Shown piece after piece: positions 27,501 through 54,330 of a stretch of DNA of 64,000 bases. The DNA is from an uncultured Conexibacteraceae bacterium (GTDB lineage Bacteria > Actinomycetota > Thermoleophilia > Solirubrobacterales > 70-9). How positions within the stretch are numbered: the first letter of the stretch is position 1; the number at the start of each line of letters is the position of its first letter. Made by a program: the position numbers and the translations under genes. The stretch spans positions 11,050 to 75,049 of the forward strand of contig CAZHZI010000002.1 of assembly GCA_964536955.1 (NCBI GenBank), written 5' to 3'. Under the pieces are notes generated by a model. That model was not told the DNA's origin and did no database searches. It worked only from the letters and a program-made list of their open reading frames with translations.

Positions 27501-29432
27501 TTAGTCAGCGGCCCCCCCGCTCAGTTCCCGCAATCCGACATCCTGCGGGTTGAGCGCCAACGCACGCTGGTAGTGCCGTCGGGCGGCGGCGGCGTTGCCG
27601 CCACGCACCTCGAGGTCGCCGAGGAGGCCGAGCGTGACGAAGTTGGTGGGCTCTGGGTCGAGCGCATCCTGCAGCGATTGCCTAGCCGCTGCCCGATCCC
27701 CCTGAGTCTCCAGCGCAGAGGCCTGCAGATACAGCGGCGTGATCGATACCGGATTGAGCCAGGCGGCCGTGCGCGCGGAGTCCAGCGCTGCCTGCGATGA
27801 GCGGAAGGCATCCTCTCGCGCCTTGCGAACGTAGAGGTCGGAAAGGAACAGGAAGGTAACGCTGACCAGCGCCGCCGCCAGCGCCGCGGCCCCGGCGATG
27901 CGCCCAACCGACCACCGCGACCGGCCACTCGCGACCCCAACGCCCACCTCTTCGTCCTGGTCGCCAGCCGCGGCCAGGCTCAGCGCCAGCACGCTCAAGC
28001 CCAGCAGACCCGGAAGGAGCCATAGCCAGTCGGTAAGGCACTGGGCGAGCACGGTGGCACCGGCGGCGGCCAGGCCAGCTACCCACATTCGGTCCCTTGG
28101 CGTCACGGCTCGCGCCCGGCGAGCGATCGCCATCCCTACGGCTCCCAACCACACGGCGAACAGCGCGAAGCCGATCAGCCCGGTCTCCGACAAAAGCTTC
28201 AGCGGCAGGCTGTGGGGATCGCTCAGGTTCCTGTCGGTCTGCCGATCGCGGTAGTAGGCGAACTGGTAGCTGCCCGCTCCCATGCCTGCCAGCGGATTCT
28301 CGCGAAACTGGTCCCAAGCCACGCCCCAGAGGTCGGAGCGCTGACCGCTGACGGTCCCGAGGCGGGTGGAGCCGGTGACGGCCTCCGGCTCGATGTCCTC
28401 GAACTCTTCGAGCTTGTCGTTCACATAGCTGACCGGGTTGCCGATCCTGGCCACACCGAGCGCTCCCACGCCGATCGACAGGATGACCAGGGCGCCGGCC
28501 CCGAGTTGCCGCAGCCGCAGATCGAATGCCGGCGAGCGCAGCCCGTTGTCGAAGACGAAAACAAACAACCCAGCGAGAAAGCACAGCGCCGACGTAACCG
28601 CAAGCGCGGTCGCCGCGGTGCGAATGTCCGCCTCACTGGCCACCCCGGCGCCACCGTCGAAAGCGTCGAACGGCGTCAACATGGAGCCGGAGGCGACCCC
28701 GATTGCGCCGACGGCTGCAATCGCCGCCCAGGAGCGCCGCAACCGATCGGGACCTATCGCCAGGGAAACCGCTGCGCCTGCGGCGAAGCCGATCAGCACG
28801 CCGCGCGACTGCGTGAGGAAGGCCAGTCCAAGGGCAAGCACGGCCACCGCGAACGCCGCCGCTCGAATGCCCGAGGCCAACCCCCGACGGGCCGCCACCC
28901 CGATCAGTGGCCAGACGGCGAATGCGAACAGCGCGGCGGTCCCGTTGCGGTAGCCGATCGGGGAGTCGAGCCGCCCGGCGAGAAAGAGATCGGCCCCGTC
29001 GACGAACAGGCCCGCCAGCGTCACGACCGCGACGACACCGACGCCGGCAAACAACCCGATGCCGAAACGGTCCCGCCACCGGCCGATGCCGGCGGCGATT
29101 ACCAGCGTCCAGAGAGCCGCGTAGAAGGTCGTCCGAGCGGCGTCCTCCCAGGCCAGCGCCGCACTCTCAGACCAGGCCGCACTCAGCAGGACGTATCCGG
29201 CGAAGGCCCAGATGGCCACGGTTGCCACGGCCAGCGGGCCACGACGGGGAATCAACAGCCCGCCCGTCGCCGCTTGGGCGACAAGCATCGCCAAGGCGAG
29301 GATCGTCAGGGGCGCCCAGTAGCGCAGGTCAAAGGCGCCGTCCCACCAGGCCGAGACCACGAGCAGAACGCCAACTAGAGCCACCGGCCACGCTCCAGCG
29401 GCCTGCGGCGGGCGCGTGGATCCGTCTACCAT
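27501..29432 (-). CDS. Wzy_C (O-antigen ligase / O-oligosaccharyltransferase family) membrane protein with C-terminal TPR repeats
   Basis: Many TM helices. Wzy_C periplasmic loop: GTVSGQRSDLWGVAWDQFRENPLAGMGAGSYQFAYY...SDPHSLPLKLLSETGLIG. TPR tail: QGDRAAARQSLQDALDPEPTNF...GNAAAARRHYQRALALNPQD. Start set at MVDGSTRPP (29432); upstream Met codons would overlap the divergent gene. Confidence 0.75.
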   Translation of the reverse strand: MVDGSTRPPQAAGAWPVALVGVLLVVSAWWDGAFDLRYWAPLTILALAMLVAQAATGGLLIPRRGPLAVATVAIWAFAGYVLLSAAWSESAALAWEDAARTTFYAALWTLVIAAGIGRWRDRFGIGLFAGVGVVAVVTLAGLFVDGADLFLAGRLDSPIGYRNGTAALFAFAVWPLIGVAARRGLASGIRAAAFAVAVLALGLAFLTQSRGVLIGFAAGAAVSLAIGPDRLRRSWAAIAAVGAIGVASGSMLTPFDAFDGGAGVASEADIRTAATALAVTSALCFLAGLFVFVFDNGLRSPAFDLRLRQLGAGALVILSIGVGALGVARIGNPVSYVNDKLEEFEDIEPEAVTGSTRLGTVSGQRSDLWGVAWDQFRENPLAGMGAGSYQFAYYRDRQTDRNLSDPHSLPLKLLSETGLIGFALFAVWLGAVGMAIARRARAVTPRDRMWVAGLAAAGATVLAQCLTDWLWLLPGLLGLSVLALSLAAAGDQDEEVGVGVASGRSRWSVGRIAGAAALAAALVSVTFLFLSDLYVRKAREDAFRSSQAALDSARTAAWLNPVSITPLYLQASALETQGDRAAARQSLQDALDPEPTNFVTLGLLGDLEVRGGNAAAARRHYQRALALNPQDVGLRELSGGAAD

Positions 29433-29441
29433 GCGCGCTTC

Positions 29442-30026
29442 ATGCTCAAGCGCTCCTGTTTGACCGGCGCCTTGGCGCTCTGCATGCTCGCTCATTCGGG
29501 CGGAGCATACGCAGCATCTGTCCACGCGGCCCCCGGCGATCCCCCTGCGGGGAGCCCCTCGGGACAGATCTATGAGCTGCCTTTCGAGAAGGGCCGCTCA
29601 GACGCCGCGCCGAAGGGCAGCGGCGGCACCAGCGCTGGAGGCGGGGGTGCCGCCAGCGCTGGAGGCGGTGGCGAAGCGACATCCCCCACCGACGATGCGT
29701 CAGTGGAGCCGTCGCTCTACAGGTCGGAGAACAACTTCGGCTCGTCGTCGCAGGTACCCGGGAATCCCTCCCCTGAGAACAGCGCCTCAGGTGGCGAGGG
29801 CAATGCGACGGACAACGGACATGAAGACGATGCTGCGGGAGGCGCCACGGGGACGGGGTCGAGCAACGGAGGCGGGCCTACGCGAATCGGAGTCGCGGCC
29901 AGTGGTGTCACAGGCTCCGGCAACACCTCCCCAGCCGGCAACTTCGCCCTGCTTGGCGTCATCGCCCTGATCGCGGTCGCGGTCGGAGCCGCCTCGCTCA
30001 AAGCGAACCGGCTCAGGGCACGGTAG
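29442..30026 (+). CDS. Secreted low-complexity Gly/Ser/Ala/Pro/Thr-rich protein with C-terminal TM anchor and basic tail
   Basis: Clear signal peptide (MLKRSCLTGALALCMLAHSGGAYA). ~140-aa low-complexity region (GSGGTSAGGGGAASAGGGGEATSPTDD...NSASGGEGNATDNG...GSGNTSPAGN). C-terminal FALLGVIALIAVAVGAASLKANRLRAR. No recognisable family. Confidence 0.6.
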   Translation: MLKRSCLTGALALCMLAHSGGAYAASVHAAPGDPPAGSPSGQIYELPFEKGRSDAAPKGSGGTSAGGGGAASAGGGGEATSPTDDASVEPSLYRSENNFGSSSQVPGNPSPENSASGGEGNATDNGHEDDAAGGATGTGSSNGGGPTRIGVAASGVTGSGNTSPAGNFALLGVIALIAVAVGAASLKANRLRAR

Positions 30027-36688: not shown

Positions 36689-37968
36689 AAGAGGACGTCG
36701 GGCATCTCTAGCTCAATTGCCTCCAGCGGCAACGCCGAGGTCCAAAGGAAGGCCAAGCGCTGGAAGTGCTCGGCCAGCCAAGGGATCAACTGCAGGCAGG
36801 AAGAGTCACCCAGGACGACTGCGCGGGGCAATTCCTCGGCATCGGCGATCTCATATAGGTGAGGGGCGCGAGTCGGCGAGACTTCGAGGTGTTCGGGGGC
36901 CGGCATTCGCCGAGCGCGCAGTGTCGATGCGTCCACCTCGTCGACGTCTTCCTCCCATTGCTCGTGGTCGGCATCCTCGACAAAGCCGTCATCGACCAGC
37001 GAAACCTTCGGCTTACCGGCGAGATCGCCACGGAAGCCTGGAACCCTCACGAAGGTTGCCTCGGCGGGCAGCAACGGCTCCAGTGAAATCACCGCTTTGG
37101 ACGCCTCCTTCAAGAGAGCGCGATACCCGAAGAACGCCCCGCGATGGTTCCAACGGGAGTCGGTTCGGTTAAAGACCTCACCATGGCGGCGCGCACGGCG
37201 TAAATCCGGCAATAGATCGAGCAATGCGCCGCCGTTGACGTCGCGCAGAGCGGCGTTGATCTGCGTCACCGGTCGCGTAGCGCTGATATGGACGCCGTCG
37301 GGAAGCAATTCGCCGTACACGCGCTCCTTCATCGGGACCACTGCGACCACAGTGGGGATGCCGAGCTCCCTCAAGCGAGCGTGACGGGCGGTCAGAGCTT
37401 CCTGCCGGCCCTCGATCTCCTTGCGGGAAAGCAAACGACGGCCTCGAAGCTGACTCAGCGTGAGGTTGCGATCGTCGCGAAGAAACAGCCATCTGTCCTT
37501 GCCAATCAGCGCACAGTCACCGGGGTCGGGGGGCTCCTCTTTCTCAGGGACGAAGGCCACCGCGGAGCGACCTTCCGGTGTGAAGGTCGTCTGATTCCAA
37601 GCGTCGGCCGGAGAGCGCACTACCGTCGAAAACGACTCGACAGCGACCACATCGGTCCTGTTTTGCCCGGCCAGCACGCGGATCTTGTGCGACGCGCTTT
37701 CGGTAAGGCTCTCGGGGAGCGAGATGTCGAAGCCGTGGCGCCCCTGGCCGATGCCTGCATCGGCAAGCGCGGGTCGCTCGACATCGGCCGCCCCCCTGGC
37801 CACAGACCGCCCATCGACTTCGATCTCGACCTCCACTGCCTCGCCCGGTCGCCCCGGGTCCCAGGCCCAGCCAATGGCACGTCCGTCGATGACGGCCTCG
37901 AAACGACCCTCTATCGTCGCGGCCGCTTTGCCGGTCTCAGTCTCCTCTACCTGCTGAACCACGCTCAA
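36637..37968 (-). CDS. AlgX/AlgJ-like (SGNH-type polysaccharide O-acetyltransferase-like) protein with N-terminal beta-sandwich domain
   Basis: Central strings resemble the AlgJ/AlgX fold: IGKDRWLFLRDD, LGIPTVVAVVPMKERVYGELLPDG, FNRTDSRWNHRGAFFGY. N-terminal IDGRAIGWAWDPG...VEVDGRSVARGAADVERPALADAGIGQGRHGF module. The start (TTG 37968 or GTG 37962) overlaps the upstream stop. The homology call is tentative. Confidence 0.45.
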   Translation of the reverse strand: MSVVQQVEETETGKAAATIEGRFEAVIDGRAIGWAWDPGRPGEAVEVEIEVDGRSVARGAADVERPALADAGIGQGRHGFDISLPESLTESASHKIRVLAGQNRTDVVAVESFSTVVRSPADAWNQTTFTPEGRSAVAFVPEKEEPPDPGDCALIGKDRWLFLRDDRNLTLSQLRGRRLLSRKEIEGRQEALTARHARLRELGIPTVVAVVPMKERVYGELLPDGVHISATRPVTQINAALRDVNGGALLDLLPDLRRARRHGEVFNRTDSRWNHRGAFFGYRALLKEASKAVISLEPLLPAEATFVRVPGFRGDLAGKPKVSLVDDGFVEDADHEQWEEDVDEVDASTLRARRMPAPEHLEVSPTRAPHLYEIADAEELPRAVVLGDSSCLQLIPWLAEHFQRLAFLWTSALPLEAIELEMPDVLFHVVTERFLISRDFAGS

Positions 37969-40900
37969 GCAGCCGCCCGGTCACGATCGAAACGGCGCGC
38001 ATACTCCCGTGAGAAAAGGAGATACTCCGATAGAGCGGCGCGAGCAATCGAGTAGTGCGCCGCGGTCCGCCGTGCTCCCTCCTGGAGGTGCCGAACCCGA
38101 TCCCGGTCGGTGACGAGCTCGGCGAGCACATCAAAGGCGGAAACGGGATCGAGTGTGTCGACCGCGCAAGCGTTCTCCCCGTCGACGACGAACTCCCATA
38201 CTCCTCCAAGCCGGGGAACGATCGCTGTGCATCCACACGCCATCGCCTCCAGCGCGGTGCGGCCGAATGCCTGATACAGAGACATGTCAAGGAACACGTC
38301 GGAGCGGGCAAGGACCTTTGCCACATCCTGGCGAGTGAGGATGCCGCAATGGCTTTCGAGCAAGGCGGTCGAGTCGGTGAGGTTGGCCATCTCCTCGCCC
38401 GCGCAACCGAAGGTGACGATTTCCACCGTGGCTCCAAAGCGCCGGCGCAGCTGTTCCAGCACCGCCAAGGTGGCGGTCGGCTGACGCCGGGGCGTGCGCG
38501 GACGAACCATCGCCGCGACACGAAGGGGCCCGTCCCCGCGGACGATCTCAGGGGGGACGAACAGGCGCTCGTCGATGCTCGGCTCGACCTTTTCAACACA
38601 CAGTCCGTGGTGGTGCCCGATGACGTTGCACAGCCAGTGGGTCTTGGCGAAGAGAAGGCAGTCCTGAATCGCAGTGTAGGACTCCACCGCCTCGCGCACG
38701 TCGCCTGATTCGTGTGCGGTGAGAAACGGCTCGTAGTCCTGGACGTAGTAGGCAGGAAGGAAGTCGTCGCGGCGGGATCGGATCTCGGCGAGCATGGCAA
38801 TCGACTTGAAGTGGGTGGCGGAGATCACATTGGCGTCGGCGGTTTTGGCGGTGAGCTCATCGGTGTCGGCGAAGGTCTGAAAAATCTCACCGGCGTCGTC
38901 ATAGGCAGCTTGAGCGCGCCGCTGGGCATGAGCGGCAAGCAAGATCCGCGCAGGCACTCCCAGCTCGCGCAGACCTTTCACCTCCTGGTAGATCGAATGA
39001 GAGCCACCCGAGCCTCCGTCGCCCAGACCGGGGAGGATGAAAACGACGTTGAGTGGATCGCGCTGCCCGACATCGAGCGCGGCAGCGAGAGATCTCGGGC
39101 TTGAAAGAGCGTCTCCGACCGCATTTCTCAAAGGGCCCAGCGAGGAATCTTTCTCCATGCCGCTCACCAGTGCCTGAATTTCCTCGCGGCCGTGTTTGTC
39201 GAGGAAGATCTCGTAGTTGCGTCGGGCGATTGGCTGACGGGCCTCGGCGGTATATGACTTCGACTTCGCGTGAAAGACGTAGCTGTCGTCGACGACCGCC
39301 AGCTCGAAACCGGCCTGGGCGGCGCGGTAGCTGAAGTCATTCTCTTCGCAGTAGCCGCTGGCGAAATTCTCCAGGTCGAAATAGCCGATCGCATCGATGA
39401 CCGCACGCTTGATCACGTAACAGAACCCGTTGATGAATGGCAGGCGCGGACGCAGGCGAGGGGAAAGGCGGTCGAGGAGTTTCGTTATGCCGTCCTCCGT
39501 GACAAAGGACGGCAATGGGTTCGTCGCCCAGGCGCCATCGTCACGAAGGCGGGGAACCGACTGGTGGCTGGCGGCGTTGGAGAGAGGGCCGAGGATTCCG
39601 ATCCGCTCGTCCGACTCGCCACAGGCGACGATCCTCGTCAGCCACTCGCTGGTCACGATCGTGTCGCTGTTGAGAAGCACTACGTAGTCCCCAGAGGCTG
39701 CCCGCATGCCAATGTCCGCAGCGATCGCGTAGCCGTGTGGCGGAGTCTGGTTGTCGATCAAGGTCATCTCTGGATTCGCGGTCGACGCTTCCTCGAGGTA
39801 AGCGGTTGTCTGCGCGTCGCTTCCGTCATTGACGACGATCAGGTGAAACGGATCGATCGACTTATGGATCAGCGACCACAGGCAGCGACGCACGTCGTCG
39901 AGTGCGTCGTGGACACAGACGACGACGTCAACGCTGGGACCGCCTGCCGATGGAGCGTCGTCGGCGCCAATGAGTATCCGGCGACGATCGCGCGAGGATG
40001 GAAGCGCCATCGGATCCGCGCCTGCCGCGGTAGCCGGGCGGTACTCCGTCGCGAAGCTACGCCTTGCCTCCCGCTCCACGTCGGTGGCACGCGCGTCGAC
40101 TGCCTCAGCAGTGAGTGAGCGGCGGACCGGCTCCTCGATGTCGGCGTGCTCGGCAGCCGTAAGCCTGGCGGTCGCGGGGGACTGCTCACCGGCCGCTCCA
40201 AGCTCACGCAGCGTCACCTCGTGCAGCTTCGCCAGCTCGCTGAGCCGGCTTTCGAGCGCGGAGCGCTCCGCCTCCGCGACCTGGGCTCGGGCTCGGGCGC
40301 GCCCGAGCGCCGTTTGGAGATTTGCAAGCTGGGCGTTTACTCGCTGCATCACTAGCTCACGCTCCTCGAGCATCTCGCGCAGCTCGGCCGCGGCGTGACG
40401 CGCCGTGTCGGCCCCGGCCCGCACCTCGTCCACTGTGCGTTCGAGGCTTTCCTGCGCCTCTTCGAAGTCCGCCACCAGCCGCGATCGGGCGGCAACCGCC
40501 TTTTCAAGCTCTCGCTCCCGGTCGGCGAGCCTGCGCTCGGCCTTCTCTGCGGCCGCGGTGTTCGCACGGGCCGTCGCCCGGACCTGCTTCAGCTCCTCTT
40601 GCAGCTCTGCGAGCCGGTTTCGGTCGCGCGCATGCCGGTCTTCGGCGACCTCGACCTCTTCCTGGGCAACGCGCGCCTTGCGGCGTTCCCCGGCCAGCTC
40701 CTCCTCCAGGGCGAGCTCGCGCAGCTCGGCCGCGGCGTGACGCGCCGTGTCGGCCCCGGCCCGCACCTCGTCCACTGTCCGGACCTGCTTCAGCTCCTCT
40801 TGCAGCTCTGCGAGCCGGTTTCGGTCGCGCGCATGCCGGTCTTCGGCGACCTCGACCTCTTCCTGGGCAACGCGCGCCTTGCGGCGTTCCCCGGCCAGCT

Positions 40901-41930
40901 CCTCCTCCAGGGCGAGCTCGCGCTCCCCGAGGGCGTCCCGCTGCTTTTCGAAGCGCCGGGCCCGGCGCTTCGCGTCGTCCAGCTCGTCCCGCATTTCCCG
41001 CAAGGCGCGAGTCGCGGCCTTGGCCTCCTTGAGCGACTGTCCGCGCCGATCGTCCGCCTTGGCAGCCTCATCCTTGAGCTGGTCGAGCCCCGCACGGACT
41101 TTCGACCCGTCCCGCGTCGCCTTGACGCGCCTAAGCTCGGTGTCGATCCGCGCCCGTTCGAGGGTCTCGACGCGGGAGCGCAAGAACTCCGCCTCGCGTG
41201 TCGCCTCGAGCAAGTTTCGCAGGCCCTCGTGCTCTTCGAGCAGATCTTCGGTCGCGAGAACGCCCAGCCCGTGCTGTCCCGATATCTCATACAGGCGCCA
41301 GTCGCTCTTGCTCTGGCCGAGAAAGTCGTCAATTCCCCCGCGGACGCCACTGTGCTGCGCGGCTGAGACCGTCGCGTTGGCGAGATGGCTGTTCAGGCCG
41401 TCGTCGACCAGCTCGTCGGAGTCGGGATGAATGCCACGTCGCTGAAAGGGCCGGCGTTTGTCCTCGGGGATATTGTCGGGGTCGTAGTAGAGGTCCCGCC
41501 GCCCATAGGGCCAGGCGATGTCATGGAGCGCGACCAAAGGCGGCCGAGCTTCCTCGTCCAAAGCGGAGGACTCGAGGAGCTTGAGCTCGTTGAGAACCGT
41601 GTGCCAGTTGTGATCCCCGTCAACAAGGGCGAGGTCGACCGTCTCGAGGGTCGGCAGGACGTCGAGGCTCAGGCCTTGGTGAAATACGAAGGCTTCCGGG
41701 TGGCTCGCCTTCAGCTCCTCCACGTCGAACTGGGGACGTGGGTCGATCGAGTGCACAACAGCTCCGTGTGACTCTGCGTATTCGACGAGGGCCCGGGTCG
41801 TGATGCCCGTGTCGGCGCCGATTTCGAGGATCCGCCGCGGACCCAACGCATCGATGAGAGGCTGCAGGAGCACGTCCCAGAACGCCACCATCGACGGCCC
41901 GTGCGCAGGGTTGAGATCAGGTTTGGCCAT
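37965..41930 (-). CDS. 1321-aa multidomain glycan-assembly protein: N-terminal class I methyltransferase-like (Methyltransf_24/CmcI-like) head, ~350-aa coiled coil, GT2 domain, GT-B (GT4-like) domain
   Basis: Head: RRILEIGADTGITT, LALVDGDHNWHTV, HDIAWPYGRRD. Coiled coil about aa 240-590, charged heptad-like (ELALEEELAGERRKARVAQEEVEVAEDRHARDRNRLAELQEELKQVR x2). GT2: VDVVVCVHDALDDVRRCLWSL, LIVVNDGSD, VLLNSDT. GT-B: VVFILPGLGDGGSGGSHS, YYVQDYEPF, QAFGRTALEAMACGC. Confidence 0.8.
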   Translation of the reverse strand: MAKPDLNPAHGPSMVAFWDVLLQPLIDALGPRRILEIGADTGITTRALVEYAESHGAVVHSIDPRPQFDVEELKASHPEAFVFHQGLSLDVLPTLETVDLALVDGDHNWHTVLNELKLLESSALDEEARPPLVALHDIAWPYGRRDLYYDPDNIPEDKRRPFQRRGIHPDSDELVDDGLNSHLANATVSAAQHSGVRGGIDDFLGQSKSDWRLYEISGQHGLGVLATEDLLEEHEGLRNLLEATREAEFLRSRVETLERARIDTELRRVKATRDGSKVRAGLDQLKDEAAKADDRRGQSLKEAKAATRALREMRDELDDAKRRARRFEKQRDALGERELALEEELAGERRKARVAQEEVEVAEDRHARDRNRLAELQEELKQVRTVDEVRAGADTARHAAAELRELALEEELAGERRKARVAQEEVEVAEDRHARDRNRLAELQEELKQVRATARANTAAAEKAERRLADRERELEKAVAARSRLVADFEEAQESLERTVDEVRAGADTARHAAAELREMLEERELVMQRVNAQLANLQTALGRARARAQVAEAERSALESRLSELAKLHEVTLRELGAAGEQSPATARLTAAEHADIEEPVRRSLTAEAVDARATDVEREARRSFATEYRPATAAGADPMALPSSRDRRRILIGADDAPSAGGPSVDVVVCVHDALDDVRRCLWSLIHKSIDPFHLIVVNDGSDAQTTAYLEEASTANPEMTLIDNQTPPHGYAIAADIGMRAASGDYVVLLNSDTIVTSEWLTRIVACGESDERIGILGPLSNAASHQSVPRLRDDGAWATNPLPSFVTEDGITKLLDRLSPRLRPRLPFINGFCYVIKRAVIDAIGYFDLENFASGYCEENDFSYRAAQAGFELAVVDDSYVFHAKSKSYTAEARQPIARRNYEIFLDKHGREEIQALVSGMEKDSSLGPLRNAVGDALSSPRSLAAALDVGQRDPLNVVFILPGLGDGGSGGSHSIYQEVKGLRELGVPARILLAAHAQRRAQAAYDDAGEIFQTFADTDELTAKTADANVISATHFKSIAMLAEIRSRRDDFLPAYYVQDYEPFLTAHESGDVREAVESYTAIQDCLLFAKTHWLCNVIGHHHGLCVEKVEPSIDERLFVPPEIVRGDGPLRVAAMVRPRTPRRQPTATLAVLEQLRRRFGATVEIVTFGCAGEEMANLTDSTALLESHCGILTRQDVAKVLARSDVFLDMSLYQAFGRTALEAMACGCTAIVPRLGGVWEFVVDGENACAVDTLDPVSAFDVLAELVTDRDRVRHLQEGARRTAAHYSIARAALSEYLLFSREYARRFDRDRAAA
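40374..40436. repeat. Dispersed third copy (63 bp, 100% identical) of the last 63 bp of the 201-bp unit (40716..40778)
   Basis: ctcgcgcagctcggccgcggcgtgacgcgccgtgtcggccccggcccgcacctcgtccactgt occurs at 40374..40436 and at 40716..40778. It encodes TVDEVRAGADTARHAAAELRE twice. Confidence 0.95.
40578..40923. repeat. Perfect in-frame tandem duplication: 201-bp unit (40578..40778) followed by a 145-bp second copy (40779..40923), inside the coiled-coil coding region
   Basis: 40578..40722 and 40779..40923 were aligned by hand and are 145/145 identical. The period is 201 bp, or 67 codons. Confidence 0.95.
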
Positions 41931-41985: not shown

Positions 41986-43503
41986 TCATCCGCGGCTGGC
42001 GTCCAATGACTCGGCGGCCCTCTGGCGGGGATCCGCAATCTCCGCTGCTTCGGAAAGGGGCCCGGGATCGCGCTCGGCGGCGGCAAGCGCGGCGTCCAGA
42101 TGGTTGGGTCGGGGCTCGCGCCGCAAGCTGACCAGGCGGATGAGGCGTGCCATTCGCCGACCCACGCGAGCCCTGCGAGTCATCCCGGCCGTGCGCAGAT
42201 GCTCGGCGACTTCGTCGAGCTGGGTGCGTGCCATCCGCAGCTCATCTCCCACGCGCTCCAGCTCACCGCGAAGACGCTCGCTGTCGGCCTCGGCAGCCTG
42301 TAGCGCGTCCTGCCGATGCGCCAATCGGCCCTGTGCCAGCTGCTCGCGCTCCACCGCGTCACGCAACTCGCGCGCTCGCCCATCGGCCTGCTCTTCCAAC
42401 TCCGACACTCGGCTGCGCATGCCTTCCGCCGCCTCACGCTCGATGTCGAGACGTTGCCGCATGCCCTCGAGGAGAATCGCCGCTTCGGCTGCCGCCTTGC
42501 GCTCCTCATCCCGCTCAGCCGAGAGCTCCTTGATCTGCACCGAGCGACTTGCCAGATCTTCCTCCAAGCGCTTCAGCTGCCATTCGAGTGCGCCGCGCCG
42601 AGCACGGTGCTCGGCAAGTTCGGCGAGCACCGTCGAAGTTTCCACATCCGCTGCGGCCGGCGCGTCCGTGGCAGGGAGCGGCGCATCCGATTCGACGAAT
42701 GCCTCCGGCGGCCCCGCGGACACCCCCTGCCGCAAGGCCGCGGCCTCAACCTCGACCGCCAGGCGCGCCAGCTCCGCCTGCCTGGCCTGGCCCCCGAGAA
42801 AGCGAGCGGATCTCAGTCGCCTGAACACGGAGCCGAGGGCGGGGTTCTCTTCGAGGACGCGCGCGTCGGCAAGCACCGCGACGCCGTGAAATCCCGGAAT
42901 TTCGGCAATTCTCCAATCCCGCGTCGAAGCGGCGATCGCGTCCTCAATCCCGGTCATGACGCCCGAGCGAGGCTCGAAGTCCCGCTCGGCGCAGGCCGGC
43001 ACGAGGCGAAGCCCGCCGGGGCGAGGCTCCCGATGACCCGGAACGAGACCAAGCTGCGAGTGCGCCCTCCGTTCCGCCTCGGGAATGGCGGCGGGATCGT
43101 GGTAGCCGTCACGGCGGCCGTAGGGCCAGTGGACATGGTGAACGACCACGACAGGCGCGGCGCGATCTGCACGCTCGGCCGATAGCTCGAGCATCGTCAG
43201 CTCGCTGCTCACGGTGTACCAGTTCGGATCGCTGTCGAGCAGGGCCAGGTCGACGGGGCCCAACCGACCGATCACGCTCACGCTTCGCTCCGCATGGACC
43301 CTGAGGCGCCCCCCCGATTCCTCAGGCAGACGCGGATCGAGCCGCGGCGACGGATCGATCGCATGCAGAACGGCGGTTCGGGCGCCTGGTGCGGCCAGCG
43401 CACGCTTCGTAAGGCGCCCGGCGCCGGCGCCTGTCTCTACGATCGTCCGCGGTTGGAGTGCTTCGATCAGAGGAGCAACAACGGATGCGAAAGACCGGTG
43501 CAT
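41986..43503 (-). CDS. 505-aa methyltransferase-like head plus coiled-coil protein (paralogue of the N-terminal half of 37965..41930, no GT domains)
   Basis: Head: RTIVETGAGAGRLT, LALLDSDPNWYTV, HHVHWPYGRRD. C-terminal ~170-aa charged coiled-coil-like region (LEWQLKRLEEDLASRSVQIKELSAERDEERKAAAEAA...RLRGELERVGDELRMARTQLDEVAEHL). Confidence 0.7.
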   Translation of the reverse strand: MHRSFASVVAPLIEALQPRTIVETGAGAGRLTKRALAAPGARTAVLHAIDPSPRLDPRLPEESGGRLRVHAERSVSVIGRLGPVDLALLDSDPNWYTVSSELTMLELSAERADRAAPVVVVHHVHWPYGRRDGYHDPAAIPEAERRAHSQLGLVPGHREPRPGGLRLVPACAERDFEPRSGVMTGIEDAIAASTRDWRIAEIPGFHGVAVLADARVLEENPALGSVFRRLRSARFLGGQARQAELARLAVEVEAAALRQGVSAGPPEAFVESDAPLPATDAPAAADVETSTVLAELAEHRARRGALEWQLKRLEEDLASRSVQIKELSAERDEERKAAAEAAILLEGMRQRLDIEREAAEGMRSRVSELEEQADGRARELRDAVEREQLAQGRLAHRQDALQAAEADSERLRGELERVGDELRMARTQLDEVAEHLRTAGMTRRARVGRRMARLIRLVSLRREPRPNHLDAALAAAERDPGPLSEAAEIADPRQRAAESLDASRG

Positions 43504-43516
43504 CGAAGGGTCGAGT

Positions 43517-44395
43517 CTAGGCGGTTCCGTCGGCCCCGGAAGGGCTCTCGGGGCGACGGCCCGTGAGGTGGTGATAGCGGGCGGGCGGCTTCCCTGGCGC
43601 CCGGTGCGCTGACTTCACGTCCTGGAACCCGGCTCTCCGCAGTTCCCGCCGCCCCGCGCGCGGGGACGTCAGCCTTACGGACGAACGAGCGCGGCCACGG
43701 GCGGAGAGCCTCAATACCGGCCGCGCAAGCGGGGTGGGCAGTTGATGGACGAGCGGAAGTCCGGTGAATGGGTCCAGCGGGGAGGTGCGACTGGGATCGC
43801 GCGCGACCACCCATCCCCCCGGCCGGAGGATGCGCAGCACGTGAGCAAGCCCACGGCGGCGATCCTTCCGATCGGTGACGTAGCAGAGGGAGTTGTTGAG
43901 TAGGACCAGATCGAAATGGCCATCGGGGAGCGCCATCTCCTCAAGCCACCCGCGGGTAAACGAAGCGTCGAGCCTGAGGCTCTCGGCGAGCCGGGCTCCC
44001 ACCTGAAAGCGCTCCTCGTTTGGATCCATCCCGACCACCCGGGCGCCTGCGTTTGCGAAGTAGAGGCTGATCGCGCCAAACCCGCATCCCATGTCGGCAA
44101 CGGTCAGCCCCTCGACCGAATCCCGACCGGTGCGCCCGGCGTATAGATCGAACAGCAGACCTGCGCGTTGCGGCACCAGCGTCGAGTTCGTGTCCAGCGT
44201 CCGCAGGCCCTCCTCTCCCTCAATCGATTCGCCGCGCACTCGGTAGTACTCGATGATCTCGTCCCTGAGGCGACGAACGACCCGCGCGAAGTCCTTGTCT
44301 CGCTGCACGGCGAGCATGATGGTCGATCGCCGTCTCGCCGAGGCTCCCCCGCTATCGTCGGCGCCGAAAATGCGCGCTTTATGGTCTTCGGTCAT
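43517..44395 (-). CDS. Class I SAM-dependent methyltransferase
   Basis: SAM loop: LTVADMGCGFGAISLYFANAGARVVGMD. Also FDLVLLNNSLCYV and LRPGGWVVARDP. The start at 44395 would overlap the divergent gene start (44370) by 26 bp; the internal Met at 44317 is an alternative. Confidence 0.75.
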   Translation of the reverse strand: MTEDHKARIFGADDSGGASARRRSTIMLAVQRDKDFARVVRRLRDEIIEYYRVRGESIEGEEGLRTLDTNSTLVPQRAGLLFDLYAGRTGRDSVEGLTVADMGCGFGAISLYFANAGARVVGMDPNEERFQVGARLAESLRLDASFTRGWLEEMALPDGHFDLVLLNNSLCYVTDRKDRRRGLAHVLRILRPGGWVVARDPSRTSPLDPFTGLPLVHQLPTPLARPVLRLSARGRARSSVRLTSPRAGRRELRRAGFQDVKSAHRAPGKPPARYHHLTGRRPESPSGADGTA

Positions 44396-46940
44396 CGCCC
44401 CGCTGCTGGAAGCGTGCCGACCTGCCGTGGTTGTGGATTTTGGCGGTGCAGGCGAGGACCTCCAGGACGCGCTGGTTCAGGCAACGCGCGAGTACGAAAG
44501 CGACGTGCGCGACGTGCGCCACCCAAACCTGGACCTCGACGCCGCCCCCCCACCGGATCTCGCGCTGGTTCACTGCGAGCCGAGCTGGTACGCGGTAACG
44601 GAACGGCTCGACCGCCTCGCCGAAGCGGCACGCGCCGGGGGCGCTCCGCTGGCGTTGACGCTGGTCCACGGCGTCGATTGGCCCACGGGCCGTCGCGATG
44701 GAGTGCTGACTGCGGTAGAGGACTTCCTCAATCGCGGCGACGATGGCCTCGAGCTCGTCCATCTGCCCGGGCTTGGCGGGACCGGGATCCTGCTGGCGAA
44801 AGAACGGCTCGAGGGGAAGAGGTCGGAAGAGCTGGTCAAACTGATCGAAGGGTGGCGATTCAGCCCGCCAGCCCTGGCACAGCTGGCAGCCGTGGATGCC
44901 GCCCGCGTGCGGGGCCAGGCGGGGTTCGTCGAGCTGCGATCCGAGCTCGAGGCGATGCGGGCGGGAATGGCGACACAGGCCTCAGCGGAGACCGCGGAGT
45001 TGCGCACCCGGGTTGAGGATCTCGCGGCGCGGAACGCGGCGCTGGCCGAAGCGCTGGCCCGGCGCGACGCACAGCTCGCCGGGGGTGAGCCCGACGATGA
45101 GGTGGGCGTCGGCGGCGCAGATCGATCGCCTCTTGAGCAGCTCGAAGGGCAAGCGCGCCTCGAAGGAGTCGCCGAAGCCTGGGGCCCGATTCCCCGGGAT
45201 CGCCGCAACGTGCTGCTCGCCACAGACGAGGCGGGACTACCAGGAGAGCCGGAGCCGTTCCACGCAGTCGTCCGGGCTGTCGCGGGTGCCGAACAGCTCT
45301 GCCGTTGTCTGTGGTCCCTGCTTGACCGAACCGACCGCAGGCTGAGGCTGACGCTCGCGATCGACAACGAGACGACCGCGGAGATTCGGCGTCTGGCAGA
45401 TGCGATCGCGGCCGCGGAGCCGGCGGTGGGCATCGTCGAAGGGGCCGTCGACGGCGCCTCGGGCTGGCGAATGCTGGTCGACTCTTCCGTGACCTTCGGA
45501 CACGGAACCATCCGCAGCCTCTTCAGCGCAGCGGCCAAGTCGCCGTCGAAGCCCGTTGCGGCAGCATCGGCGGACACGCTCGGCACTCCTCGGTGGGCGG
45601 GGCCGGACGCGCTTGCCCTGCTGCTTGCCGGAGCCGTCCACGACGGCCCCGGCCTGTCAGATCTCGCCGCGCCGTGCGCCGTCCTGCCACCGGCCGTGCC
45701 CATCGCCGAGCCAGAGCTCGTCGCGCTGGGAGCCGTGGTGGAACAACCTGGAGCGGCCCGCCACGGCCTAGTCCCAACGCTTGGATGGCTTGACGACGCA
45801 CTTGGCGACGAGCAAACGCTCGCGGAGGCAATACGCGAACGGGTGCGCGAACCCCTTGCGATCGCCTACGTTCTGCCTGGCCTGCCGCCCGAGGGATCCG
45901 GCGGATCGCATTCCGTTTTCCAGGAAGCCCTCGCCCTGCGCTCCTGTGGAATCCGCGTCCGAGTTGCGGTCGAGAGCGAGTTTGCCGGGGGCGCGGCCCT
46001 CCTCTACCCCGCTGCCGCCGACCTGATCGAGGGCTACGACACGCCGCAGGCGCTCGAAGCCGCGCTCGACGGATTTGACGTCGTCGTGGCAACCGAGGCC
46101 CCATCAGCGTGGCTGGTGGCCCAACACGCCCGCCGGCACCCGGATGTCCTAGGCGCCTATTACGTACAGGACTACGAGCCGCTCTTCTCGCCCGAGCGAG
46201 GGCCGAGCGCCGATGCGGCCATGCTCTCCTACCGGCAGGCGGCAGACTTGCTGCTCTTCGCCAAGACGCATTGGATAGCGAATGTCGTAGGCGCCGCTCA
46301 CGGCGTGCCGGTGGCGAAGGTCGACCCCAGCTTGGACACCGAGGTCTTCCACGCCCGCGGCCGACGGGAGGCGCCCACCGCTCCGATACGCGTGCTGGCG
46401 ATGATCCGTCCGCGAACGCCACGACGGCAACCTTTGGAGACCCTCGGCGCGCTGGAACGCATCCAGCGTCTGCTTGGCGATCGCGTCGAGTGCCTGTCGT
46501 TCGGCTGCCCAATCGACGAATTCGACGAGCTACAGGGAAAGGTCGACGCCGTCAATGTGGAGCACTTGGGGGTGCTCGGTCGCGAAGAGGTCGCGGAAGC
46601 CCTGCGGCGCTGCGATCTTTTTCTGGATCTATCGATCTACCAGGCCTTCGGCCGCACCGGGCTGGAAGCGATGGCTTGCGGGGCGGTGCCGATCCTGCCG
46701 GGCAGCGGGGGGACGCGAGAGTTCGCCGTCGCCGGCTCAAACAGCCTGCTGCTCGACGACACCGCCGACGAGGAGGCGGTCGTGGCCTCCGTGGAGGCCC
46801 TCGTGCACGATCCGGAGCGTCTCGGGCGCCTGCGTGCGAACGGCATCGAAACTGCCCATTCCTTCTCCGTCACCCGAGCCGCTCTGAGTCAATACGCCTG
46901 CTTCGCTGCACATTTCGCGACAAGGCGATCCGCGTCGTGA
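44370..46940 (+). CDS. Multidomain paralogue: degenerate methyltransferase-like head, short coiled coil, degenerate/truncated GT2-like segment, GT-B (GT4-like) domain
   Basis: Start MRALWSSVIAPLLEACRPAVVVDFGGAG aligns with the N-termini of the two paralogues. Also LALVHCEPSWYAV and HGVDWPTGRRD. Coiled coil: ELRSELEAMRAG...RVEDLAARNAALAEALARRDAQL. GT2-like remnant: FHAVVRAVAGAEQLCRCLWSL...MLVDSSVT. GT-B: IAYVLPGLPPEGSGGSHS, YYVQDYEPLF, QAFGRTGLEAMACGA. Confidence 0.75.
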   Translation: MRALWSSVIAPLLEACRPAVVVDFGGAGEDLQDALVQATREYESDVRDVRHPNLDLDAAPPPDLALVHCEPSWYAVTERLDRLAEAARAGGAPLALTLVHGVDWPTGRRDGVLTAVEDFLNRGDDGLELVHLPGLGGTGILLAKERLEGKRSEELVKLIEGWRFSPPALAQLAAVDAARVRGQAGFVELRSELEAMRAGMATQASAETAELRTRVEDLAARNAALAEALARRDAQLAGGEPDDEVGVGGADRSPLEQLEGQARLEGVAEAWGPIPRDRRNVLLATDEAGLPGEPEPFHAVVRAVAGAEQLCRCLWSLLDRTDRRLRLTLAIDNETTAEIRRLADAIAAAEPAVGIVEGAVDGASGWRMLVDSSVTFGHGTIRSLFSAAAKSPSKPVAAASADTLGTPRWAGPDALALLLAGAVHDGPGLSDLAAPCAVLPPAVPIAEPELVALGAVVEQPGAARHGLVPTLGWLDDALGDEQTLAEAIRERVREPLAIAYVLPGLPPEGSGGSHSVFQEALALRSCGIRVRVAVESEFAGGAALLYPAAADLIEGYDTPQALEAALDGFDVVVATEAPSAWLVAQHARRHPDVLGAYYVQDYEPLFSPERGPSADAAMLSYRQAADLLLFAKTHWIANVVGAAHGVPVAKVDPSLDTEVFHARGRREAPTAPIRVLAMIRPRTPRRQPLETLGALERIQRLLGDRVECLSFGCPIDEFDELQGKVDAVNVEHLGVLGREEVAEALRRCDLFLDLSIYQAFGRTGLEAMACGAVPILPGSGGTREFAVAGSNSLLLDDTADEEAVVASVEALVHDPERLGRLRANGIETAHSFSVTRAALSQYACFAAHFATRRSAS

Positions 46941-51800: not shown

Positions 51801-52355
51801 TTCTACCCCGATCCCTCACCGGAATACGAGCACGACCTCGTCTACGTCGCCAACTCGCGAAATGTTCTGCGACCGATCGTCCGCGACCTCCTGCCCACCG
51901 AACATGACCTTGCGATCTATGGCGCCAACTGGGAAGGGCTGATCGACACCAAATACGTCGTCGCCGAGCACATTCCCAACGACGAGCTGCGCAAGGTCTA
52001 TTCCTCGGCCAAGATCGTCCTCTGCGACCACTGGGACGACATGCGGGAGCACGGATTCATCTCGAATAGGATCTACGACGCATTGGCTTGCGGGGCGGTG
52101 GTCATCAGCGATGACGTGCGCGGTCTGCGAGGAAAGTTCGGGGAAGCGGTTCTTACGTACACGACGCCCGATTCGCTGCGCGAATTGGTCAATAGGCAGC
52201 TTGCCCCCAGTGCAGCCCCCACTCGGCTGGAGCGCTCATTCCAGCCGAGCAACGGCTTCGCCGATCGGTGTGAGCGCCTGCTGGAATGCATTCACTTGCA
52301 TGACGACGCGTCGAGCCGTTCGAGCAGCGCGCCGGCTCTCGCATGCCCCCGCTAG
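48840..52355 (+). CDS. 1171-aa multidomain protein: N-terminal ~180-aa coiled coil, GT2 domain, two CgeB-like (Glyco_trans_1_2 / DUF3880-type) GT-B modules
   Basis: Coiled coil: LGALEQQVAQLTEELAEREQALAEARTEV...RVRDLEGEVPQREGEIGELRRALGEAELQ. GT2: VSMVVPTRNGHDHIERLVTGL, LIVVDNGSGDG, LFLNNDIEP, YGTEDVDLGLKL. CgeB-like x2: SSAKLVLDDT...VNSRVFDALAAGTLVITN and SSAKIVLCDH...ISNRIYDALACGAVVISD. Confidence 0.75.
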   Translation: MSDPRLYEQLFDENLRSTGGPTSLARLGALEQQVAQLTEELAEREQALAEARTEVSEGRRDDEARERRSRALEVRLQAAEDALRIAASERDAALREIDRKANAASKLGERVRDLEGEVPQREGEIGELRRALGEAELQGRRTASEYGARMRELEQLVSTLAGGLAQTKEDIDRAADSRAWRWGHGASRALRRLALRRNVTEGALARSLKRIEQIQQANLALRQSASTPPTLESLVIEPLAETRPADSRSEAERTRMRAELALEIRERLGSTPEKKSWPGVSMVVPTRNGHDHIERLVTGLAERTDYPEFELIVVDNGSGDGTGEYLGQLGVPFGVSVVTNAESVSFSAANAQGVGRARHDLLLFLNNDIEPFEPGWLRELVAAHDREGVAAVGATLLRSEAGDDPSTRDRTVQHRSIKFRASADSVRPYNSSDGEDLFAARFGIEDHAPAVTAACLLIDRASFGSAGGFADGYRYGTEDVDLGLKLTASGGVGAVVATGRSILYHRESATQDAEGRDFKHNNRMANRRLFLERWGPRVRRDYRLGRLRGDPAWTDGQGPHIAITVTSLDPADGWGDWYTANEMGDALADVGWRVSYIERKGDAWYALPDDLDYLLSLMDPFDLRRVPDDVTMIAWVRNWTERWLERPWFERADVILTSSQPSAEAIESATGRSTVLFPLATNPTRFAPCPPDPDFDADYVFTGNHWGEDRDIQMGLQPRKDERLDVYGRGWSEVAGLAAYARGSAPYSELPKIYSSAKLVLDDTSGPTLPYAAVNSRVFDALAAGTLVITNCEAGVRELFDEEFPVWDSAGSLRSQLDSLLGDERRRTDLAQRYRNEVLRHHTYAHRAGQLAEMLEDHERKLSFCLKIGAPTWEEAERWGDLHFVRALERQLRRRGHRCLIQVLEEWEDSAGLSYDVAVVIRGLSRHHPKPGQFNVLWNISHPADMTGEECDGYDLVCVASEQFAATLRERTATPVVVLEQATDPAIFYPDPSPEYEHDLVYVANSRNVLRPIVRDLLPTEHDLAIYGANWEGLIDTKYVVAEHIPNDELRKVYSSAKIVLCDHWDDMREHGFISNRIYDALACGAVVISDDVRGLRGKFGEAVLTYTTPDSLRELVNRQLAPSAAPTRLERSFQPSNGFADRCERLLECIHLHDDASSRSSSAPALACPR

Positions 52356-53515
52356 GCCGCCCGATCGAAATTCACCCGCTCTCCGATCAACCAAGCCTGC
52401 GCATCGGGGGTCTTCTTACGCCGCGCGCCGCCGATCGGCGGGATCTCGCCGTGACCGAGATTCCGCACGACGCGTCTCGCCAGCTCCAACCTCCGACCAT
52501 CTCCCTTGACGAGGCCGGGCACCAGCGGCCCCTTGCGACGGCGACGCCGGCAAAATCTGCTTGCCCGCTCTACTTTGCGAGGCTGAGCGATGGCGTCGTA
52601 GCCGTGCCGCCAGCCACAAGGCGGTGCTATCTGTTGAGTGGGCGGGGAGAATTGGTCGCCGACTCGGTCGATGACTCGCCGAACGTGTACCGGCGGGCGG
52701 TCAAGGACTGGGCACGTCTCGCGGAGATCGACGCCGAGCCGGCGACGAATCCGCGCGAAGTCATGCTGGTGGCCGGGCAGCGCAACGGCTACTGGCACTG
52801 GTGGGTCGACATTCTCCCCCGCATCTGGCTTCTCGAGGCATGCGGGCCCGCGAGCACCGGGGCCATGCCACTCGTCTTTCCTGCGTTTGCGTCGCAGTTT
52901 CAGAGCGAGTCGCTCGACGCACTAGGGCTCTCGGCGCGAGTCGAGCACATTGCCCCGGGTCTCTCTCGGTTTAAAAGCGTCACATTCACGCCGGGCCTCA
53001 CCGCCGGGGGCTCCAGATTTCCATCCAATCGTCTCTACGACTATGCACGATGGCTGCGCGCGACTTTGACACCGCAGGGCGCGGCGGGCGGTGGCCCGGC
53101 CCGTCGCATTTTCGTGAGCCGGGCGGATGCAGCGTCACGGCGGATCGCCAACGAAGCGGAGATCGCCACGCTGCTACAGAAGCACGGCTTCGAGGTCGTC
53201 GAATGCGCGCGGATGTCCGTCCCGGAGCAGATCGCAGCGTTTGCCGACGCCGCGATCGTGGTCGGGGCGCATGGGGCCGGCTTGACCAATCTTCTTTTCT
53301 CCCGGGCAGGTACCCATGTCGTTGAGATCTTTGCGTCGACTGCCGCTCAGGAAGTTTCGAACTATCGTGTCCTCGCTTCCCACCTGGGGCTGACCTACAG
53401 CAGGATGCTGGGGACGCCCGTGGAGACCACACGGCGCTCCAAGAGTCCCCACGACCTGGACATCAAGGTCGATGCCAATCACCTGGCGCGTGTGCTCGCC
53501 GTCGCCGAAGACTAG
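52343..53515 (+). CDS. Glycosyltransferase family 61 (DUF563) protein
   Basis: GQRNGYWHWWVDILPRIWLL matches the GT61 N-Y-x-H-W-x-x-D-x-L-P-R signature. Also RRIFVSRADAASRRIANEAEI, VVGAHGAGLTNLLF. The start is uncertain (ATG 52343 overlaps the upstream gene by 13 nt). Confidence 0.7.
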   Translation: MPPLGRPIEIHPLSDQPSLRIGGLLTPRAADRRDLAVTEIPHDASRQLQPPTISLDEAGHQRPLATATPAKSACPLYFARLSDGVVAVPPATRRCYLLSGRGELVADSVDDSPNVYRRAVKDWARLAEIDAEPATNPREVMLVAGQRNGYWHWWVDILPRIWLLEACGPASTGAMPLVFPAFASQFQSESLDALGLSARVEHIAPGLSRFKSVTFTPGLTAGGSRFPSNRLYDYARWLRATLTPQGAAGGGPARRIFVSRADAASRRIANEAEIATLLQKHGFEVVECARMSVPEQIAAFADAAIVVGAHGAGLTNLLFSRAGTHVVEIFASTAAQEVSNYRVLASHLGLTYSRMLGTPVETTRRSKSPHDLDIKVDANHLARVLAVAED

Positions 53516-54330
53516 GAGCTGTCCAGGTGCTTCCAGCCTGAGAGATCCCGGTCCAGCATCTGCTCCAGGCGGTCAACATCCTCCCTGAAGTACTCCGCGA
53601 GGGCAAGCCGCTCCCGATCTGTCAGCGACCGCTTTCCCTTGCCGGCCTGCCAGTAACGAGTGTGTTGCGGCGGAACGCGACTGAATACAACTTCGGTGAG
53701 CGCGGCCGGAACGAAGGAGCTGTCAACCCCCAGCTCGCGCAGAGCGGTGGAGTACACCGTTTCCGGATTCGATCGCGCATCCTCATTGAGGATCACGGTC
53801 AGCTGCGGCCCGAAGCGCTCCACATACGGCTCAAGGCTGCGGGCATACCAGCCTCCCGCCACCAACTGGAGTGGATCCTCCTCCGGAGCGACACTGCGTA
53901 CGCGTTCGACGATGTCTTCGTCCGGGGCTATCCGCTCGCGCCTCATATGATGGATGAAGGCCGAGTACAGACGATCCACTGGATCGCGTAGAACCGCGAA
54001 CAGCCTCACTGCGGGGAGATCCTTGTGTATCCGTTCGGCGACGACGCTTGGCTGATGACGCCAGATCATGTATCCGGGGGTCGCCTCTCCGACAGCGCTC
54101 TCTCCATTCCAACCCTCGAAGCCCCGGCGGTAGTGGGTTAGACCGCGCTGGTACTTCGTCGTGTTGAAAAACGACAGCTCACTTTCAGGCGTGAAGATCT
54201 CCGGATGCCGCCCGAGGTTGAGTCGGAGCCAACGCGTGGCCCCCTTCTGGGCGCCGATTATGAGAAACGAGGGAAGGGGTGGAAGTTGCCCTGACGCAGC
54301 CCCCTCATCCCGGTGGCTGACGCCGATCAT
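53512..54330 (-). CDS. Sulfotransferase-family protein
   Basis: 5'-PSB loop: PSFLIIGAQKGATRWLRLNL. 3'-PB region: LFAVLRDPVDRLYSAFIH. ATGA overlap with the upstream methyltransferase-like gene. Confidence 0.8.
   Translation of the reverse strand: MIGVSHRDEGAASGQLPPLPSFLIIGAQKGATRWLRLNLGRHPEIFTPESELSFFNTTKYQRGLTHYRRGFEGWNGESAVGEATPGYMIWRHQPSVVAERIHKDLPAVRLFAVLRDPVDRLYSAFIHHMRRERIAPDEDIVERVRSVAPEEDPLQLVAGGWYARSLEPYVERFGPQLTVILNEDARSNPETVYSTALRELGVDSSFVPAALTEVVFSRVPPQHTRYWQAGKGKRSLTDRERLALAEYFREDVDRLEQMLDRDLSGWKHLDSS

Follow-up and report, generated by a model that had tools for sequence, protein, structure and literature searches.

A probable recent in-frame 201-bp insertion in the coiled-coil spacer of a putative three-function glycan enzyme from an uncultured Conexibacteraceae bacterium

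A ruler function has been shown experimentally for the coiled coils of WbdD and WbbB (summarised in PMC11231755). According to the same source, engineered changes in the coiled-coil length of WbdD shift the modal length of the O-antigen; the coiled coil of Klebsiella pneumoniae O7 (KpO7) ORF6 has been interpreted as a chain-length ruler, and a coiled coil is taken as a marker of glycan assembly that depends on an ATP-binding cassette (ABC) transporter (PMC11231755). Here we describe a repeat within the coiled-coil region of a predicted glycan enzyme (hereafter the host protein), which is encoded in a 64-kb stretch of DNA (hereafter the window) of contig CAZHZI010000002.1 from an uncultured Conexibacteraceae bacterium, and compare this protein and its locus with the described systems.

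By description, the host protein and KpO7 ORF6 both carry a methyltransferase terminator at the N-terminus, a coiled coil in the middle, and two glycosyltransferase modules at the C-terminus. However, ORF6 alone has a kinase domain, a carbohydrate-binding-module-like domain, two GT2 modules, and a wzm/wzt ABC transporter, whereas the host protein combines GT2 with GT4, lacks the kinase, has no ABC transporter within 64 kb, belongs to the Actinomycetota, and carries a much longer rod of ~330 amino acids (aa). WbbB (Raoultella terrigena/K. pneumoniae O12) likewise unites a terminator, a coiled coil, and a two-module polymerase in one protein, but it is ABC-transporter-dependent, and its terminator is a β-Kdo transferase (GT99), in contrast to the methyltransferase of the host protein (PMC11231755). 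WbdD (Escherichia coli O9a/K. pneumoniae O3) has a methyltransferase-type terminator at the end of a coiled coil, as does the host protein, with a likeness at the fold level only; unlike the host protein, it is described as a kinase-methyltransferase that recruits its polymerase, WbdA, as a separate protein and acts together with Wzm/Wzt (PMC11231755). The stand-alone WbdD-like format is found in the 505-aa neighbour of the host gene.

Among Gram-positive bacteria, WsaE of the Geobacillus stearothermophilus S-layer glycan system combines a methyltransferase with two rhamnosyltransferase modules and both caps and elongates the glycan. This glycan is later transferred by a Wzy_C-type O-oligosaccharyltransferase, which is paralleled by a Wzy_C/TPR protein in the host locus, and the WsaE locus encodes Wzm/Wzt. 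In streptococcal M protein, the injectisome ruler YscP, and phage tape-measure proteins, in-frame duplications and deletions change physical length; recombination between intragenic repeats gives natural size variants, and copy-number variation among isolates has been documented together with its phenotype. Unlike in these size-variable proteins, the repeat in the window is known from one genome and comprises 1.7 copies.

We consider it probable that this repeat is a genuine, recent, in-frame insertion of 201 bp in the spacer of a three-function glycan enzyme, with a rod that probably spaces the polymerising and capping sites. The repeat consists of two segments, A and B, arranged on the plus strand as A1, X, B1, A2, and B2, and the present protein order is B-A-B-X-A (Table 1). 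Direct reading, a repeat search, and exact string comparison agreed that B1 and B2 are identical at 145 of 145 positions and A1 and A2 at 63 of 63; in both pairs, the identity stops at these limits, without a single further matching base to the left or right. The starts of B1 and B2 are spaced by 201 bp, giving perfect 145-bp direct repeats in a 67-codon, in-frame arrangement of near-identical units. The 7-bp sequence CTCGCGC, by which A2 overlaps B1, forms the overlap of B and A and is present at 40374–40380, 40716–40722, and 40917–40923. The coordinates and identities of the two repeat pairs, the repeated protein segments, the layout, and the 7-bp motif at the B-to-A junction had been given correctly in a first-pass annotation of the window. 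Its description of the feature as a 201-bp tandem duplication stands only in part: the insert is indeed in frame and 67 codons long, but it is a mosaic of two ancestrally non-adjacent segments, and the array amounts to 1.72 copies of the 201-bp unit and so falls short of two.

With a per-base match probability of ~0.28 and ~2 × 10^9 position pairs, only ~1 × 10^−70 such matches would be expected, and a chance origin is therefore excluded. A blastn self-comparison of the window found no further direct repeats of at least 40 bp and at least 80% identity, and none of this kind in the other coiled-coil paralogues of the locus. No 100%-identical repeats were found in 1.48 Mb of related loci.

The family of the host protein is found almost entirely in metagenome-assembled genomes (MAGs) of Solirubrobacterales/Thermoleophilia. 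The product is identical to the database protein P0001, which is the single member of its protein cluster, and has more than 60 full-length homologues; an exact query of the contig index with all 1321 aa gave no record. The closest full-length homologue is 58% identical, with partial alignments reaching 69%; a scan of the genome collection found nothing closer than 62% identity, and a metagenome scan with a wobble-tolerant 44-nt segment-B pattern returned 0 contigs. In a spacer alignment of 11 close homologues (Solirubrobacterales MAGs, ~60% identity), every one had a single B, a variable X, and a single A, and the 67 residues corresponding to A2 and B1 were gapped in all of them, indicating that the ancestral protein order was B-X-A and that the A+B insert of 67 aa is specific to the host lineage. 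A2, the inserted copy, is thus absent from all aligned homologues. The comparison with relatives proposed in the first-pass annotation recovered the B-A-B-X-A layout in none of the 11, and the recent origin that it had suggested for the duplication is borne out. Since the duplication, no substitution has accumulated in 2 × 208 bp, indicating that the event or events were recent relative to point mutation.

Perfect identity would also be compatible with an old duplication that was homogenised by ongoing intragenic gene conversion. This explanation is exceedingly unlikely, as the extra unit was seen in 0 of the 11 aligned homologues, extra unit or extra length in 0 of 38 close-clade proteins, and the older repeats found in relatives have diverged to 60–90% identity, which indicates that conversion is not generally efficient in the spacer.

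A simple tandem duplication of 201 bp was rejected as the origin of the insert, because the insert joins segments that lay 141 bp apart in the ancestral order. The most economical and most likely route has two steps. In the ancestral sequence, a pre-existing direct repeat of the 7-bp CTCGCGC would have flanked A-X-B, and slippage or unequal exchange at this motif would have produced a tandem duplication of A-X-B (plus-strand order) of 342 bp (114 codons). A blunt, codon-exact deletion of 141 bp (47 codons) would then have eliminated X from one of the two copies. Replication with two template switches in a single event would give the same product and is equally possible. Every step would have been in frame, as expected where a frameshift would cost the protein both downstream glycosyltransferase modules.

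Spacer length was taken as the stretch between the methyltransferase domain and GT2. It is 421 aa in the window protein, the longest in the clade, compared with 255–355 aa in the 38 close-clade proteins (median 307.5, standard deviation [SD] 22.7) and 170 to more than 900 aa across the wider family. Without the insert, the window spacer would be 354 aa, at the top of the close-clade range. The most indel-prone stretch of the family spacer is X. Relatives carry tandem repeats of their own: a 14-aa unit, ARADDLATRVDEAT, occurs four times in the spacer of P0066 (aa ~318–373), a 14-aa unit occurs three times in that of P0053 (aa ~322–363, equal to 10956–11081 of locus L015), and P0018 has a repeat with an 11-aa offset (aa ~366–392). 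These 14-aa (two-heptad) units in three to four copies share 85–90% DNA identity. The repeats in relatives are older and diverged. Change of spacer length by internal duplication is thus recurrent, and the window repeat is the youngest example.

The first-pass annotation had also raised the possibility of an assembly artefact, and an independent assembly bears on this. It came from Logan (k = 31, unitig type, SRA run SRR6868923) and was reached via another protein of the window. The left-hand contig, SRR6868923_46669, stops at 40403, that is, k − 1 = 30 nt into A1 (A1 start plus 29), and contig SRR6868923_135818 begins at 40894, 30 nt before the end of B2. Both match the window at 100% identity, over 21,462 and 12,439 bp, and the truncated product predicted for such a break (aa 510–1321) was found as an exact 812-aa match at the end of SRR6868923_46669. 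Breaks at k − 1 nt mean that A has two predecessors and B two successors in the de Bruijn graph; the raw reads must therefore contain the B-to-A tandem junction, and a scaffolding artefact is excluded for this junction. Moreover, the graph paths that use the B-to-A edge have the form pre-A-X-B-(A-B)n-post with n of at least 1, so that assembly can under-count the unit but cannot invent it.

For the whole arrangement, an artefact or a strain-mixture chimera would mean that no single genome has exactly B-A-B-X-A, either because co-existing haplotypes were mixed, for example one with the 342-bp duplication and one without X, or because an A-B loop was traversed the wrong number of times. The contig is metagenome-assembled, an exact repeat of 145 bp exceeds common maximum k values, the Logan graph is ambiguous at the repeat, and a second sample with the locus was not found, all of which would fit this explanation. 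It is nevertheless improbable: with the B-to-A junction in the reads, at least two copies exist in at least part of the population, and the flank-to-flank paths allow only under-counting. In addition, the flanking unitigs (20 and 29 kb) match the MAG at 100% identity and show no strain variation, and a mixture needs three haplotypes where one suffices.

The insert lies in a multidomain protein for which several lines of evidence were collected. The true start is probably M14 at 41891 (MVAFW…), 13 codons downstream of the ATG at 41930, as M14 is the start in the Logan gene call and in most homologues. The N-terminal domain matches Pfam Methyltransf_24 (2.3e-12, aa 35–121), and in an AlphaFold2 model of aa 1–700, built with 60 homologues, the predicted local distance difference test (pLDDT) score of the fold at aa 14–243 is above 90. 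Foldseek matched this domain to class I S-adenosylmethionine (SAM)-dependent methyltransferases, with the mycobacterial sugar O-methyltransferase MeT1 (6g80) at the top and WbdD (4azs) at rank 8 with a TM-score of 0.14–0.20. Across 61 homologues, there is no variation at the SAM/metal motif residues E36, G38, D63, and D104-G-D-H-N108. We infer that its substrate is the non-reducing end of the glycan. The spacer is modelled as helices at aa 247–388 and 403–578 and has a hydrophobic periodicity of 3.5 residues (z = 9.5, matched by 0 of 500 shuffles), indicating a heptad-based coiled coil and not a charged single helix; a single alpha-helix of the ER/K type was set aside on the same ground. The Pro/Ala-rich linker that follows is probably flexible, with modelled pLDDT below 50 at aa 578–612 and 630–638 and a poorly conserved alignment there. 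The GT2 module matches Pfam Glycos_transf_2 (6.7e-19) and Glyco_tranf_2_3 (1.1e-14) and, in the PDB, chondroitin synthase and GalT1, and the GT4 module matches Pfam Glycos_transf_1 (aa 1150–1288) and Glyco_trans_1_4 at ~1e-12 and the PDB entries 2jjm and 3mbo. No hydrophobic transmembrane segment was found in the host protein, its C-terminus (…REYARRFDRDRAAA) is basic but short, and no NCBIfam family scored above cut-off. The GT2+GT4 part alone (aa ~665–1310) has counterparts of 36–44% identity in Proteobacteria, Verrucomicrobiota, Planctomycetota, Clostridia, and others (loci L040–L079).

Table 1. Window coordinates of the repeat segments, the domains of the host protein, and other genes of the locus. 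Protein positions (aa) refer to the host protein; AF2, AlphaFold2; ORF, open reading frame.
Feature	Window position	Strand	Basis or remark
Host gene, 1321-aa multidomain glycan enzyme (methyltransferase, coiled coil, GT2, GT4)	37965–41930	−	ORF, translation, Pfam
Class I SAM-dependent methyltransferase domain, putative chain-capping terminator, aa 14–243	41202–41891	−	Pfam, AF2, Foldseek
Alpha-helical coiled-coil spacer, aa 247–578, ~332 residues, ~49 nm if straight	40197–41192	−	AF2, periodicity
Pro/Ala-rich linker between coiled coil and GT2, low-confidence, aa 579–660	39951–40196	−	AF2, alignment
GT2 (GT-A fold) glycosyltransferase module, aa 665–899	39234–39938	−	Pfam, PDB sequence hits
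C-terminal GT4-type (GT-B fold) glycosyltransferase module, aa 930–1321	37968–39143	−	Pfam, PDB
A1, ancestral copy of segment A, aa 499–519, TVDEVRAGADTARHAAAELRE	40374–40436	−	Aligns to the single A of homologues
X, unique 141-bp (47-codon) segment between B and A, aa 452–498	40437–40577	−	Length varies among homologues
B1, one copy of 145-bp segment B, aa 404–451	40578–40722	−	145/145 vs B2
A2, inserted copy of segment A, aa 385–405	40716–40778	−	63/63 vs A1
B2, second copy of segment B, aa 337–384	40779–40923	−	145/145 vs B1
Microhomology CTCGCGC, tandem-duplication junction site	40917–40923	.	Junction contexts read directly
505-aa paralogue (methyltransferase-like domain, ~160-aa coiled coil, basic C-terminal helix)	41986–43503	−	N-terminal similarity
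Degenerate 873–895-aa paralogue of the whole protein (methyltransferase-like, short coiled coil, GT2-like remnant, GT4)	44253–46940	+	Similarity
1171-aa coiled-coil/GT2/GT1 protein, N-terminal coiled coil ~200 aa	48840–52355	+	
656-aa multi-pass MOP (Wzx-like, Polysacc_synt) flippase	55221–57191	+	Logan gene call, weak PF01943/PF13440 hits
Wzy_C/TPR ligase-like protein	27501–29525		Conserved in locus
Sulfotransferase	53512–54330	−	
Sulfotransferase	57239–58195	−	
GT61-family glycosyltransferase	52343–53515	+	
Methyltransferase/DMFA2_C fusion	59037–61085	+	

By arithmetic, the 67 residues amount to 67 × 0.1485 nm = 9.9 nm of helix, as the ~10 nm extension first proposed for the insert requires. 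When the 67 residues were left out, a Viterbi assignment of heptads kept one register across B and X, apart from one ancestral stutter, but gave two new discontinuities when they were included, at aa 386 and 408, one for each novel junction and with a sum of −3/+4. The shift expected from the first-pass annotation is thus right in its net value (67 mod 7 = 4) but is split over the two new junctions and does not form one stutter. In a single-sequence AlphaFold2 model of aa 300–560, the only two helix breaks are at aa 383–384 and 406–408, exactly at the new junctions; A2 is modelled as a separate helix of 21 residues, and the ancestral B/X and X/A junctions stay helical. Considering that both new junctions show breaks, the insert may add hinges or a fold-back and not 9.9 nm of straight rod. 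Foldseek found the monomer model to resemble antiparallel Smc arm fragments, a fold-back geometry that was inferred indirectly and is probably an artefact of modelling a monomer.

By analogy, there is a reasonable likelihood that the host protein works like the WbdD and WbbB rulers. The rod would then set the distance between the polymerising and capping sites, and the insert would shift the glycan length distribution upward by up to ~10 nm. Alternatively, the helical region may be an oligomerisation or scaffolding arm or a flexible tether, in which case the duplication would be a neutral or mildly deleterious passenger. This alternative is doubtful but deserves attention. The locus lacks both an ABC transporter and a quality-control module of the carbohydrate-binding-module type, and a MOP flippase is present; three further coiled-coil proteins next door could pair with the host protein; the family spacer varies widely in length; and kinks are predicted at the new junctions. 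On the other hand, a terminator and a polymerase at opposite ends of a rod is the layout with demonstrated ruler function (PMC11231755), the active-site residues of the methyltransferase are invariant, and spacer length in the close clade is fairly tight (SD 23 aa), which suggests that it is constrained.

The search for the transporter gave a consistent result. No Walker A motif was found in any frame of the 64-kb window, and no ABC_tran or ABC2_membrane Pfam hits were obtained in it. Within 10 kb on either side, no ABC ATPase was found in ~44 related Solirubrobacterales loci (L001–L039, L047, L056, and L080–L082). These negatives cover the window and flanks, and a transporter may still be encoded elsewhere in the genome. 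In non-actinobacterial GT2+GT4 loci (L040–L079), an ABC ATPase lies within 10 kb on either side in only 4 of 38. The MOP flippase is the sole exporter candidate in the cluster and has an equivalent gene in the relative L080. Its GC content at third codon positions is lower than that of its neighbours, and antisense ORFs are present at 55400–56269 and 56671–57177.

That the repeat could act as a natural switch, if the coiled coil is a ruler, had been suggested in the first-pass annotation. Direct repeats like these, 145 bp long, identical, and spaced by 201 bp, readily undergo deletion and amplification, and a switch would need copy-number polymorphism. In a reversible, adaptive contingency switch, RecA-dependent recombination or slippage would gain and lose the 201-bp unit in ruler steps of ~10 nm and would create heritable heterogeneity of glycan chain length within the population. 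Besides the recombination-prone geometry, two rearrangements that occurred before any point substitution and the indel-prone nature of the family spacer would agree with this. So would the setting of chain length by coiled-coil length in WbdD and WbbB (PMC11231755). However, a single genome carries the repeat, in no more than 1.7 copies; the 67 residues do not make up whole heptads, and the two register breaks with predicted helix breaks look accidental; and the other coiled-coil paralogues of the locus have no such repeats. A switch is distinctly unlikely, and less likely than a one-off recent mutation.

Several observations weigh against a genuine recent insertion in a site-spacing rod. When the N-terminal domain was compared by phmmer with all PDB chains, including the WbdD and WbbB fragments, no match fell below E = 0.1, and there is no sequence-level homology to either protein. 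The ABC transporter, the hallmark partner of known rulers, is absent from the 64 kb and from the ~44 related loci. The Logan contig ends prove the B-to-A junction only, and the A-to-B junction, which reflects the deletion of X, assumes that the deposited contig was assembled from k-mers. The copy number and phasing of B-A-B-X-A are read from assemblies and not from reads. No microhomology at all is present where X was deleted, and slippage does not usually leave such a junction. Finally, with the helix breaks and the Smc-hairpin-like fold-back in the AlphaFold2 monomer model, a straight extension of 10 nm is not assured.

The neighbourhood of the host gene is a conserved glycan locus. It includes genes for a 2,3-diamino sugar (an epimerase, two DegT aminotransferases, a hexapeptide acetyltransferase, and a GFO oxidoreductase), a Bac_transf initiating transferase, methyltransferases, and an AlgX-like SGNH protein, in addition to the genes listed in Table 1. 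The 505-aa paralogue is 40% identical to aa 21–266 of the host protein (E = 2e-43), has no Pfam hit, holds a conserved position in relatives, and has a basic, amphipathic-looking C-terminal helix. The 895-aa paralogue is 41% identical to the host protein in its C-terminal GT4 part (E = 1e-81), with an E value of 3e-10 for the N-terminal part, and starts at 44319 in the Logan gene call; judging from its degenerate methyltransferase and GT2 motifs, it may be a pseudo-enzyme. Three paralogues with the same N-terminal methyltransferase-like domain thus occur in the window, with coiled coils of ~330, 160, and 50 aa.

The cluster also encodes two sulfotransferases, a GT61-family glycosyltransferase, and a fusion of a methyltransferase with an N,N-dimethylformamidase-beta-like (DMFA2_C) domain. 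Together, these hint that the glycan is sulfated and methylated. Another glycan cluster, distinct from this one and of the Wzx/Wzy type, lies at 92–20824 and contains a Wzy_C/TPR protein, a Bac_transf protein, GT2s, an O-antigen polymerase-like protein, a Polysacc_synt_3 flippase, and dTDP-rhamnose genes; it includes a stretch of lower GC content (0.59) at 18–20 kb.

With no ABC transporter and no sequence similarity to WbdD or WbbB, the host protein cannot be assigned to the ABC-dependent family. It is a new, unusually long, actinobacterial protein of the terminator/coiled-coil/polymerase kind. We think it very unlikely that the locus encodes a Solirubrobacterales multi-ruler system, in which the three methyltransferase-like/coiled-coil paralogues and a fourth coiled-coil glycosyltransferase would work with the MOP flippase and the Wzy_C/TPR ligase, and the main ruler would be in the midst of length evolution or switching at ~10 nm per 67-residue module. 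If true, glycan rulers would not be confined to Gram-negative ABC-transporter pathways.

An in-frame segmental duplication in a coiled coil is mutationally ordinary, and if the rod is only a scaffold, the repeat is simply an ordinary recent in-frame duplication. If the rod measures the glycan, it is a natural experiment, a single-step extension by 67 residues of an already unusually long ruler of ~49 nm, for which the ancestral state can be reconstructed exactly. As a ruler, it would show how set-points of chain length evolve by segmental duplication at microhomologies, and its two forms would be a natural pair of alleles for comparison. The locus also suggests that proteins of the terminator/coiled-coil/polymerase design may function in Actinomycetota with no ABC transporter encoded nearby, which would widen the paradigm that equates a coiled coil with ABC-dependent assembly.

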